From Nitrospirota bacterium (lineage in GTDB: Bacteria; Nitrospirota; UBA9217), in NCBI GenBank assembly GCA_963818475.1, contig CAWFSF010000005.1, positions 288,001 to 352,000 of the forward strand: a stretch of DNA of 64,000 nucleotides, in the 5' to 3' direction. This document shows positions 58,885-62,489 of the stretch, piece by piece. A program made the translations under genes and the position numbers. Below the pieces are notes generated by a model. The model was given only the letters and a program-made list of their open reading frames with translations, was not told the DNA's origin and did no database searches. Position 1 is the first letter of the stretch; each line of letters opens with the position of its first letter.

Positions 58885-58912
58885 TTGACACCTGCGGTGA
58901 ACGAGCTATACT
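58885..58912 (+). promoter_or_regulatory. Putative sigma70 promoter
   Basis: TTGACA-N16-TATACT. Confidence 0.55.
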
Positions 58913-58980
58913 TTAATCAGAAAGAGGAGTTGTTTTGTCCTGTTAATCGATTCAGTAAAGATTCACCAAGGAGGAACGCC

Positions 58981-59307
58981 ATGGCAACCGCAATTGAACT
59001 AAAAGAGAAGGTTTACTTCGATGCAGTGTATACCGCGCTCGAAGAGATCAAGATGAAACTATTCGTACTACGGGAGGAACTTGCAAAAACGTACGGAAAG
59101 GACAGCAAGATGTTTCTGGAGCATGAGCGGCATCTGATCGATATGGCAGAGTATATCGACTGGAAGCGTAATGTGCTTGAAAAAGGAACGTCCTTTGACT
59201 GGAAAATTGCGAAAGGGGACAGACCGGACATTGAGAGCGATGTTTCAGTACGGCCACCCGAGAACCGTACGGGACCGGATTTTTCCGGCGGGTATATCGG
59301 TGGGTGA
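58981..59307 (+). CDS. Hypothetical protein
   Basis: AAGGAGG RBS, upstream promoter and downstream terminator. Confidence 0.75.
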   Translation: MATAIELKEKVYFDAVYTALEEIKMKLFVLREELAKTYGKDSKMFLEHERHLIDMAEYIDWKRNVLEKGTSFDWKIAKGDRPDIESDVSVRPPENRTGPDFSGGYIGG

Positions 59308-59332
59308 TAGATGAGCAACTATCGCGTGTTCA

Positions 59333-59364
59333 AGGCCGGCGGCGAAGATACCGCCGGTTTTTTT
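59333..59364 (+). terminator. Intrinsic terminator
   Basis: GCCGGCGG...CCGCCGGT followed by a T-tract. Confidence 0.65.
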
Positions 59365-59445
59365 ATGTGGGTCCGGTCGGATCAGGTGACGGAAAAGCGT
59401 GATGATAAGCATAGATCCGCCCGGAACGGTTTATGGGGACGTGAG

Positions 59446-59628
59446 ATGACTCAGAATCCTGCCGGGGAATGCCCGGTATGCAAGCTGCCGCTTAAAGAGT
59501 GCCTCTGTTGTCCTGAGTGAGGCCATGTCTGCCCCCTGGACGAGGGGGAAAGTTACTGCCCGATCTGCTCTCCCGATCCGGCATCGCCGGTACGGCCGGA
59601 TCAGGTGGTCAATCCCGACGGCGGGTAG
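59446..59628 (+). CDS. Candidate small Cys-rich selenoprotein (Sec at codon 25)
   Basis: MTQNPAGECPVCKLPLKECLCCPE-UGA-GHVCPLDEGESYCPICS...; SECIS-like hairpin at 59532-59548. Confidence 0.6.
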
Positions 59629-59688: not shown

Positions 59689-59952
59689 TTAGAGCTCAAG
59701 TGCTTCCCGGACTTTTTGAGCGACTTCGTCGTCCTGAAGATAGGCAATCGCCTCAATGAAGTCGGCGGGAGCTGCCTTTTTTTTCATATCAGCGGTCAGC
59801 GTATTTATTAACGACTTGCGCTGGGAAAGCGGCAAGGCAAGAATGGCTTTCAGTGTCTCATTCATCGCTGCATTTTCCCGGGCGGCAAGGATCATGGTTA
59901 CAAAACTGGCATTGCCTCCTACTGACCCCGGCTGATTACGAGATGACTTCAT
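59689..59952 (-). CDS. Hypothetical protein
   Basis: 87-aa helical ORF with plausible composition. Confidence 0.55.
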   Translation of the reverse strand: MKSSRNQPGSVGGNASFVTMILAARENAAMNETLKAILALPLSQRKSLINTLTADMKKKAAPADFIEAIAYLQDDEVAQKVREALEL

Positions 59953-60062: not shown

Positions 60063-60398
60063 TCAAGGTTCAAATACACTACCCGTCGCGGTCTCGTTCA
60101 CCCAGTCCAGGTACTCCTTCGAGCCCGCGACGATCGGCAGCGCGATGATCTCGGGAACGCTATAGGAGTGGAGCTGTTTCACCCGGTCGATGATCCGGTC
60201 CATGAGCAAGGACCGGCTTTTGCAGATCATGAGCGTTTCCTGCTCGTCCCGGGTCTTGCCGTCCCAGAAGAAGAGGGACCGGACGCCTCCGACGATGTTC
60301 GCGCAGGCGACGAGATGCTCTTCCACGAGCGCCCGGCCGATCTTCGCGGCCTCATCAGCCGAACTCGTTGTGATCATGACAACCACCTCGTCTCCCAT
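60063..60398 (-). CDS. cutA: Divalent cation tolerance protein CutA
   Basis: LVACANI, SLFFWDG, HSYSVPEIIALP. Confidence 0.95.
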   Translation of the reverse strand: MGDEVVVMITTSSADEAAKIGRALVEEHLVACANIVGGVRSLFFWDGKTRDEQETLMICKSRSLLMDRIIDRVKQLHSYSVPEIIALPIVAGSKEYLDWVNETATGSVFEP

Positions 60399-60416: not shown

Positions 60417-62489
60417 CTACAGCAGCTTCATATCACCCAGGCCCTTGAGATCCAGGGTCATCATGTACTGTGTCTCGCCGGGCCGTTTGATGTACGAGAC
60501 GCCGAATCCCCAGCACTGCGACGCATAATGCGCACCGTATTCCTGCTGTGTTGTTTTCTTGTTTTCCAGATCGCGCCAGAGCTGCGTATTGAAATGCCAC
60601 TGGTCGACCGTGAAGCCGGCGCCACCGATCAGAAATTCGGTCCGGAGGTTGCCGGGTACCTGACCCACCGGCGTTGCCTTCAGATACCGGTGGGTCACAT
60701 CAAAATTCATCCCCTCGGTGGTCACTCCGAAGCTCAGGTTCGACGACGTAAGGCTGTTCGTGTAGGTATTGTACGTGCCGTTGGCGGAGACGCTCAGCAG
60801 CTTCGGGGTCCTCCAGAAGAGCTCGCCCGTGATCTCGGAGCGGGATTGGGAGGAGGAAATGGTTCCCGCTGACTTCAGTTCATAGGACTGGGCCAAACGG
60901 AAGACCATCATGTCATAGGTGCGGAATCCTGACGCATCCTTATAATGGGCAGTCAGCCGGTTGACCAGCACGGCGGTGACCCTGTTCTGCTTCGTCACCG
61001 TGTCCACGGCATCGAACTGGCGGATATTCGGAAGTCCGGTCGCCGGATCCGTTTGCTCGACCTGCGGTATATAGGAGTACGAGAGGGTCGGTTCGACCGA
61101 GTGCCGTATCCGTCCGATCCCGGACTCGGCATCCTGGCCGTAGACCCGCGAGATGCGGGCATTCAGGTCCGCACCGGCAAAGGAGTAGGTTCGGCTCACG
61201 GGCTCGGCGGCCAGCGCTCCTGCACCTCTGCTGTAGTAGGTCGTCCTCACGCCGGCCCGCGGGGTAAATCCGAGGCCGCCGCCGCCGAATGCCGCGGTGA
61301 GCTGCGGCCCGATATCCACGCGCCGCACGCCGTCGCCCTCCGCCACCGAAAAATTGACTGCCGACCCGTCAAGGCTGAGATGAAGGGGCCCGGCGATCTT
61401 TTCCTGAAATATGGTATAGCGAAGTTCGGGCAGCTTCTGAGGTGTTTCCCTGTTGTCCTGCGTGAGATTGACGGAGTACTGTCCGAGCAGGTACAGGGAG
61501 GCCGTGTCCCAGCGCTCGACATAGAACGCGTTCGAATCAAGATAGGGCAGGGACCGCAGTTCGAGCTTGCGCTCAAGATCACGATAGTAGAACTCGTCGC
61601 TCACGAGCTTGATATCGGCGCGCATCGAAAGGTCTTCGGCGATCTCCTCGTCGTGCTCGAACTTGAACTCCCACCGCGAGGCGGAAGAATGAATGGTGTC
61701 GAAAATAGTTGTAAGAGATGAGGCCCTGGGAGTCCCGGGAATTCACATAGCGGTACTCGATGCCCGTGCCATGGCCGTGCTGGGATCGATAATCGGACGT
61801 AAACGTCATGTCCTGATAATCCGATATGGCCCAGAACAGGGTAATTCTTCATCAGGAAGCCTTCACTGCTGCTGTAGCCGAGCATCGGGCATGAGCAGGC
61901 CGCTCTGCCGCCGCACCGGGAACAGGAGATAGGGCGTATAGAATACGGGCAGCCCGGCCATGTTGAACGAGACGCCGTTCGCCGTGGCATAGCGTTCCAG
62001 GTCGACGTCGATCCGGTCGGCTTTCAGGTACCACTCCTCCTTGTCGCACGTCGAGAACGTTCCGTTCTCGATCCGGTAGACGGTCTCGGAGTCCCGCTCG
62101 ATCTTCTCTCCCTTCAGATGATAGTTGTCCTTCTCCAGAAAGAGATCGCCCTGGGTGATGCTGGCTGCGCCGGTATTGATGTTGACCGTAATATGCTCAG
62201 CGCTGATGACGTCTCCCAGCTGGTTAAGAAACACCTTGCCTTCGGCCACGGCCTCGCCTGTCTTGTTGTTCAGCACGATACGGTCGGCCTGGAGCAGCAT
62301 CCCTTCCTGCTCGATCCTCACGTTGCCGACCGCGGTATAGACATCGCTTGTGCGGTCATAATCGAGCTTGTCCGCATTCACCTTGACCGGAATTTTCTTC
62401 GGTTCCTCGGCGCAGGCATGGCGGGAGAGGCCGGTCAGGATGCCGGTGCTCAGGAGAACGAATACTATGCACATGGTCGCGAACTTCAT
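60417..62489 (-). CDS. lptD: LPS assembly protein LptD (several indels)
   Basis: OstA N-terminal domain (NADKLDY, FSTC, PVFYTPY...RQSGLLMP); beta-barrel with QCWG and terminal LDLKGLG. Confidence 0.88.

Follow-up and report, generated by a model that had tools for sequence, protein, structure and literature searches.

The segment 59446-59628 on the forward strand of the window (the whole 64,000-nucleotide stretch of Nitrospirota DNA that was analysed) is very likely a genuine selenoprotein gene, in which the in-frame UGA at 59518-59520 is decoded as selenocysteine (Sec) by way of a bacterial-type SECIS element, and we take it, with marginally greater confidence still, to represent a true selenoprotein family that the lists have so far missed and whose SECIS is of canonical type. 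We observed the gene itself, the alternation of Sec and Cys at the critical codon, conservation of the reading frame on both sides of it, a SECIS signature and a link to selB across the lineage. Decoding of the UGA would be carried out by SelB and tRNA-Sec, steered by a hairpin that lies within the coding sequence 11 nt further 3'. The family is widespread in Thermodesulfovibrionia, an anaerobic class of Nitrospirota, and is a lineage-wide addition to the selenoproteome of these bacteria. Annotation routinely cuts selenoprotein genes short, and protein databases show nothing of this family save for rare Cys forms that are named only 'hypothetical protein'.

Gene, homologues and the frame across the UGA

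The gene and its surroundings in the window are as follows.

58885-59307, forward strand: 140-residue ORF, upstream neighbour (translation read)
59332-59368, forward strand: intrinsic-terminator-like hairpin (59332-59361; 11-bp stem, 7 GC pairs) and T-run, ending the upstream gene
59435-59439, forward strand: putative ribosome-binding site GGGGA, 6 nt 5' of the ATG, inferred from the sequence
59446-59628, forward strand: very probable selenoprotein gene, 60 codons plus TAG stop, with homologues in 74 + 6 species loci
59446-59448 and 59626-59628, forward strand: ATG start and TAG stop, as read from the sequence
59518-59520, forward strand: in-frame UGA, very probably Sec, residue 25 in the motif C22-P-E-U25-G; TGA in 74 of 80 loci
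59689-59952, reverse strand: 87-residue ORF, convergent neighbour (translation read)
60063-60398, reverse strand: CutA-like ORF, neighbour (translation read)
60417-61625, reverse strand: LptD-like ORF, neighbour (translation read)

Translation with the TGA read as U yields MTQNPAGECPVCKLPLKECLCCPEUGHVCPLDEGESYCPICSPDPASPVRPDQVVNPDGG, exactly the 60-residue read-through peptide that the first-pass annotation had quoted, with 8 Cys and 1 Sec. The terminator-like hairpin that follows the upstream ORF sets the small gene apart as a unit of its own; no sigma-70-like promoter was found for it, and several homologues carry GGAGG-like sites 5' of their ATG. The window neighbours are, by reading of their translations only, functionally unrelated to the small gene.

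Using the read-through protein as query against the 61 nearest genomes, we found 19 matching places in 17 genomes (E<=7e-8), at which the aligned codon is TGA in 17 and Cys in 2 (G056 and G011, both TGC). A scan of one genome per species returned 116 pattern matches, 102 of them encoding relatives, and the 80 species-representative loci that were kept carry TGA (74), TGC (5) or TGT (1) at the critical codon; nearly all are labelled as Nitrospirota or Thermodesulfovibrionales MAGs, one as Deltaproteobacteria and two as 'uncultured bacterium'. When metagenomes were scanned with the Cys forms, 316 pattern matches gave 96 relatives, of which 80 were kept and reduced to 64 unique Cys-form segments. 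Homologues with either TGA or Cys at codon 25, as the first-pass annotation anticipated for such a gene, therefore exist in number (74 TGA, 5 TGC and 1 TGT among the 80 loci, plus the 64 metagenome Cys forms). In an even sample of the phylum, the gene was present in 67 of 301 genomes at E<=1e-6.

Protein databases hold few of these relatives. Searched with a profile, 1.84 billion representative proteins yielded no more than 32 matches at E<=1e-3, and among the 28 of these that were listed, 25 are Cys forms of 50-94 residues, the others being a deaminase fusion (P0021, 195 aa), a fragment (P0032, 35 aa) and a repeat protein (P0033, 148 aa). Ten database relatives were looked up and one had a name, 'hypothetical protein', while a word-indexed protein search found 1 relative only. 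Two database relatives have Arg (P0002, CCPERGH) or Trp (P0012, CCPGWGH) at the Sec position, residues that are odd for an essential ligand and that may come from point variants (CGA or TGG) or from genes called with a different code.

Members of the family are proteins of 40-90 residues with the pattern C-x2-C-x6-C-x-C-C-x2-[U/C]-G-H-x-C-x8-C-P-x-C, and their core, conserved before and after the UGA alike, reads C-x2-C-x6-C-x-C-C-x2-[U/C]-G-H-x-C-[PL]-[LR]-D-x-G-E-x-[YF]-C-P-x-C-x-P. Downstream of the UGA, C29, C38 and C41 are invariant and G26, H27, D32, G34, E35 and P39 nearly so, and the sequence GHVC[PL]LD.GE.[YF]CP[VI]C.P that follows the UGA is near-invariant as a whole. Across the 74 unique TGA forms the column entropy at the first, second and third codon positions is 0.06/0.22/1.20 upstream and 0.27/0.38/1.18 downstream of the UGA, and this three-base pattern, which persists past the UGA, is the mark of coding in the same frame. 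The sequence after the UGA is thus conserved as protein, by motif and by codon-position entropy alike, and conservation in frame together with Cys codons in homologues makes this a classical Sec/Cys pair. As to the reads, independent contigs of close relatives, at 97-98% identity for the two DNA runs and 93-94% for the two metatranscriptome runs, are unchanged at 59518-59520, which bears out the TGA. For transcription in close relatives the RNA-library contigs are weak evidence, since they could stem from DNA carry-over.

Could the TGA nevertheless be an ordinary stop or a sequencing error, with the downstream likeness arising from a second ORF or an RNA element? Standard ORF calling does split the gene, as the first-pass annotation had noted (the ORF list breaks 59446-59628 into 59311-59520 and later pieces), and the hairpin taken alone is statistically ordinary. 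The TGA is, however, kept in 74 species assemblies and 4 read-derived contig sets, 6 + 64 homologues have a Cys codon within one continuous ORF, and the three-base variation pattern goes on in frame, so that we consider this explanation barely credible. The source genome has a second, paralogous copy that likewise contains Sec (G000:C2:632738-632881, outside the window); it encodes the 47-residue MNENAGNLCGICDLPPKECVCFCGUSHVCPLDQGEAYCPICLPEPEH and has the same hairpin. In the paralogous subfamily to which it belongs (also L066, L113 and L119), C22 is replaced and the motif reads C-x-C-F-C-x-U.

The hairpin downstream of the UGA

The first-pass annotation had pointed to a hairpin CCCCCU-GGACG-AGGGGG with G first in its loop; it is present 11 nt 3' of the UGA, its apical loop begins 17 nt 3' of the UGA, and it is part of a larger predicted fold.

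59532-59548, forward strand: predicted SECIS upper hairpin, 6-bp stem (59532-59537 with 59543-59548), loop GGACG (59538-59542)
59518-59562, forward strand: extended predicted SECIS that starts at the UGA and takes in the outer stem; UGA + 48 nt has an MFE of -17.3 kcal/mol

The bSECIS model, as given in the Fig. 2 legend of PMC13188914, has a loop of 3-9 nt and a stem of 4-16 bp, a G within the first two loop positions, a UGA-loop spacing of 16-37 nt and an MFE <= -7.5 kcal/mol; the window element (6-bp stem, GGACG loop, spacing 17 nt, MFE -17.3 kcal/mol) falls within all four constraints. The lower stem is a prediction to which covariation gives no backing. As a single sequence the fold is unremarkable (66-nt segment, z = -0.07 versus shuffles), and the hairpin goes beyond chance only through its relatives, in that TGA, downstream frame and hairpin occur in 74 of 80 related species.

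We scored the model on the MFE structure of the UGA + 48 nt and found that it fits 68 of 74 unique TGA forms versus 21 of 69 unique Cys forms, the latter partly because the codons for Cys-Pro...Gly-Glu favour C and G runs. This test superseded a stricter one of the hairpin only, which demanded a contiguous stem and which 37/74 Sec forms versus 7/69 Cys forms pass. The mean MFE of the 28-nt hairpin is -9.87 in TGA forms (n=74) versus -5.85 in Cys forms (n=69; Mann-Whitney p=1e-11), and it is -9.82 (n=73) versus -6.67 (n=41; p=7e-8) when only sequences with the same amino-acid motif are compared. The third base of codon 31 (Leu/Arg) is G in 73/73 TGA forms versus 11/41 Cys forms, and that of codon 30 is a pyrimidine in 73/73 versus 21/41. 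Over residues 29-35 there are 8 amino-acid variants in TGA forms and 38 in Cys forms. Third-position entropy is 0.69 in hairpin codons versus 1.47 elsewhere, and upon synonymous recoding the mean z is -1.43, with 34 of 75 sequences equalling or exceeding 95% of their own recodes in stability. The synonymous sites of the hairpin are frozen only in TGA forms. All of these statistics overstate independence, since the TGA forms belong to a single class and the Cys forms are drawn more widely.

Covariation in a fixed register is not significant. The observed pairing is attained by 453 of 500 shuffles, and RNAalifold retains 4 pairs only, with no compensatory change; the lack of significance follows from the slipping of a stem made of a C-run and a G-run between registers. 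The differential constraint between Sec and Cys forms was therefore taken as the decisive evidence. Compensated stem variants can be seen by eye in three loci (L083, L057, L117), and Rfam returned nothing relevant.

Like the canonical bacterial SECIS (the bSECISearch consensus, as described in PMC13188914), the hairpin lies in the coding sequence just 3' of the UGA and respects the constraints, but it differs in having a short upper stem (5-6 bp) composed of a C-run and a G-run that occurs in three registers among species. The loop motif GGA is invariant in the family, and we regard the hairpin as a predicted SECIS of canonical type. In all, the earlier proposal of a selenoprotein with an in-frame UGA gains support from Sec/Cys alternation, frame conservation and a hairpin constraint specific to TGA forms. 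Four TGT Cys forms (L146, L190, L191 and L189) keep the full Sec-type hairpin and its codon choices and look like very recent TGA-to-TGT conversions; natural Sec/Cys pairs, including the conversions L146, L190 and L191, offer a clean system for the constraint that a SECIS places on coding sequence.

Selenocysteine machinery in the source genome and the phylum

Matches to each component named in the first-pass annotation (selA, selB, selC and selD) occur in the source genome, although selA and selB are scattered over different frames in this assembly. tRNA-Sec (63 bits; called as SeC with anticodon tca by ARAGORN), selD (323 bits) and a frameshifted selA (358 bits) score over their cut-offs, and selB was recovered only as pieces. 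Together, selA and selB contain about nine frame switches across ~3.5 kb, and when the flanking metallophosphoesterase-like gene is included (G000:C6:1735500-1739600, outside the window) there are about eleven in all. By comparison, rpoB is a single open frame of 1345 residues. As the unrelated adjoining gene is broken likewise and rpoB is intact, the breaks more probably stem from a locally poor stretch of assembly than from real decay.

Were the breaks real, the gene would be a relic in the source genome, the UGA would terminate translation and a 24-residue peptide, or nothing, would be made. The recovery of selA and selB only in pieces in different frames, and likewise of selB only in pieces in a genome of the same genus (G003), speaks for such a relic. 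We nonetheless judge it improbable, given that frame switches also affect EF-G and the flanking unrelated gene while rpoB is intact, that the breaks fit local consensus errors in a 7-contig assembly, that frame and hairpin are flawless in the two copies of the small gene, and that tRNA-Sec and selD are present.

To relate the gene to selB, two genome listings of the phylum sample were cross-read by hand. The 67 gene-positive genomes comprise 53 with TGA in the match, 13 without and 1 (G139) with only TAA, and selB was detected at E<=1e-65 in 47 of the 53 TGA-form genomes; it is intact in the TGA-form relatives G014, G021 and G048. Among the six exceptions, G000 (the source genome) and G003 have selB pieces only, and G004, G007, G220 and G223 (74-89% complete) gave no selB match even at E<=1e-5. 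Conversely, the six families without selB (133 genomes) contain one match to the gene only, the Cys form of G067.

In the source genome, selD itself (G000:C6:2120012-2120939, outside the window) has in-frame TGA codons, two being reported, with its C-terminal part in another frame, and because of these codons it is probably a selenoprotein too.

Known families and the candidate metal site

The protein resists assignment to a family, as the first-pass annotation had stated: among Pfam and NCBIfam models, none matched the window protein above its cut-off, and zinc-ribbon families gave no match to it at E<=0.1. Neither does any of the 119 families and subfamilies in Table 1 of PMC13188914 (a 2026 review) correspond to the family described here. 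It was likewise not found in the accessible text of the deep-Sep, BSepDB and MccSep papers and the Haft preprint, whose supplementary tables may hold an unnamed entry, and a literature search for the family or its motif brought up nothing relevant.

Three of the listed families, NF041239 (CC/Se motif), NF041197 (dual CXXC small protein) and TIGR02605 (FmdB), are likewise short and Cys-rich with Sec in or near CxxC-type motifs, and were predicted as selenoproteins from Sec/Cys pairs and SECIS elements (Table 1, PMC13188914). These three models and TIGR04081 gave no match to the window protein at E<=10 and none to 96 family members at E<=0.1, and a search of the whole source genome with NF041239 gave no match at the small-gene locus. 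TIGR04081 is the selenobacteriocin family in PMC13188914, and in being small, Cys-rich and Sec-containing the protein resembles such a RiPP precursor peptide, be it a selenobacteriocin or SCIFF-like. Since the protein matches neither TIGR04081 nor any RiPP model, no radical-SAM enzyme or other maturase is conserved nearby, and the core is uniformly conserved with no split into leader and core, we give this origin very little credence.

A further likeness is to tiny proteins that consist of nearly nothing but CPxC knuckles, namely the CPxCG zinc-finger micro-proteins (HVO_2753-like, PF07754) and a 'putative metallothionein' group. The ESM Atlas clusters nearest to one Cys homologue (P0004) belong to these groups, with scores of 0.86-0.90 that serve as leads only, and HMMs of the CPxCG micro-protein families match neither the window protein nor the members. 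Neither the HVO_2753-like/PF07754 nor the 'putative metallothionein' families are known to contain Sec.

Zinc-ribbon and rubredoxin-like domains (PF13240, PF21349, PDB 4qiw_B) share with the family a CPxCG knuckle and, 12 residues further on, a CPxC. Recurrent matches at E<=0.1 among the 96 members were to Zn_Ribbon_1 (19) and RUBY_RBDX (14), followed by Zn_Ribbon_TF (8), Zn_ribbon_3 (8) and DZR (5), all of them weak, with scores of 13-19 bits against gathering cut-offs of 25-29 that none reach. In P0016, P0020, P0011 and L070, Zn_Ribbon_1 and RUBY_RBDX span the same stretch, which is CPEC-GH...CPVC where informative. The best PDB profile match was the zinc ribbon of archaeal RNA polymerase B (E=0.0016), whose CxxCGH...CPVC falls on C22-U25...C38-C41. 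Two CxxC knuckles that could supply four ligand positions are thus present in the sequence pattern (C22xxU25-x12-C38xxC41). The family is set off from these domains in that it scores below every curated cut-off, has Sec at one ligand position in most members, is free-standing at 40-90 residues and adds conserved, interleaved C9, C12, C19, C21, C29 and H27.

From these patterns we consider it reasonably probable that the protein binds metal through its CPxC knuckles. Because the profile alignments place C22-U25...C38-C41 on ligands, these weak matches suggest that, within a CPxCG knuckle of zinc-ribbon or rubredoxin type, Sec is the second ligand. That selenium is a direct ligand of such a metal site is our leading mechanism, put forward tentatively, in which C22, U25, C38 and C41 would form a tetrahedral site of zinc-ribbon or rubredoxin type, a further site would be made up of C9, C12, C19/C21 and C29, and the protein would serve as a small redox-active or redox-sensing metalloprotein. 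An AlphaFold2 model was poor (pLDDT 62.4), and Foldseek with this low-confidence model found no fold match in the PDB.

In known families, Sec usually stands in place of a catalytic Cys, and the same gene might encode a protein whose Sec attacks substrates as part of a redox-active C22-x2-U25 pair instead of binding a metal, the other Cys residues serving structural zinc or disulfides. A redox CxxU is a recurrent motif in Table 1 of PMC13188914 (SelW-like, GrdA and AhpD-like proteins), and most uncharacterised selenoproteins are probably redox proteins according to that review. Against this, neither a thioredoxin-like fold nor any other fold or family of oxidoreductases was detected, CPxCG followed by CPxC 12 residues on is the zinc-ribbon/rubredoxin pattern, and the paralogous subfamily that lacks C22 (C-x-C-F-C-x-U) has lost the CxxU spacing. 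On balance we regard the redox reading as rather unlikely.

The window protein also fits CxxCxxCxxxCP exactly, so that C19-x2-C22-x2-U25-x3-C29-P could be a [4Fe-4S] motif of ferredoxin type in which Sec is one of the cluster ligands; there are weak matches to PsaC profiles (E 0.013-1), and one member matches NuoI (E=0.016). The motif is, however, variable within the family: 43 of 74 TGA forms have Leu as residue 30, C19 is absent in several members (L067, L100, P0008) and C22 in the paralogous subfamily. With no Fer4 Pfam match among the 96 members at E<=0.1 either, a cluster ligand seems a poor prospect.

Should the preferred reading of Sec as a ligand in a knuckle be right, this would possibly be the first natural family with Sec as a direct metal ligand, in an M(Cys)3(Sec) site of zinc-ribbon or rubredoxin type present in at least 74 Thermodesulfovibrionia species, a suggestion that we advance with the same reserve as the mechanism. 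The protein would then be a 'seleno-knuckle' mini-metalloprotein whose Cys form would have been recruited in another clade as the N-terminal domain of TadA, and that fusion would hint at a redox-sensing module associated with nucleic acids or enzymes. At 40-60 residues the protein is a tractable model for the role of selenium in a tetrahedral metal knuckle as compared with a redox site of thioredoxin fold.

The fusion was seen in 9 of 78 metagenome Cys-form loci (L131, L133, L134, L136, L141, L149, L155, L159 and L171; also in P0021), where the Cys module lies ahead of a deaminase domain in ORFs of ~195-215 residues and makes up the N-terminal ~50. By its HAE...PCxxC motifs the deaminase part looks like a TadA-type tRNA adenosine deaminase in 8 loci, and in the ninth, L171, it looks dCMP-deaminase-like. 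No Sec-type locus has a deaminase neighbour. There is no conserved neighbour partner either, the top neighbour cluster occurring in 15 of 81 loci and appearing YajQ-like by sequence reading.

A Cys-cluster protein (…CPxCxxVCC…) that looks YkgJ-like when its sequence is read is encoded on the same strand ~1 kb upstream in 6 of 81 loci (L063, L056 and four others), too few for linkage. At L029/L049 (G014:C14:520114-520269), the small ORF follows an O-methyltransferase-like ORF in frame with no stop between them (375-residue open frame) and has its own ATG 3' of the methyltransferase-like ORF, an arrangement that may be a fusion or else two overlapping ORFs. A conserved amphipathic C-terminal tail, for example PKEMLKATIESLKKM, is found in L057, L059, L065, L076, L086, L091-L094, L116, L120 and L125 and is absent from the window protein.
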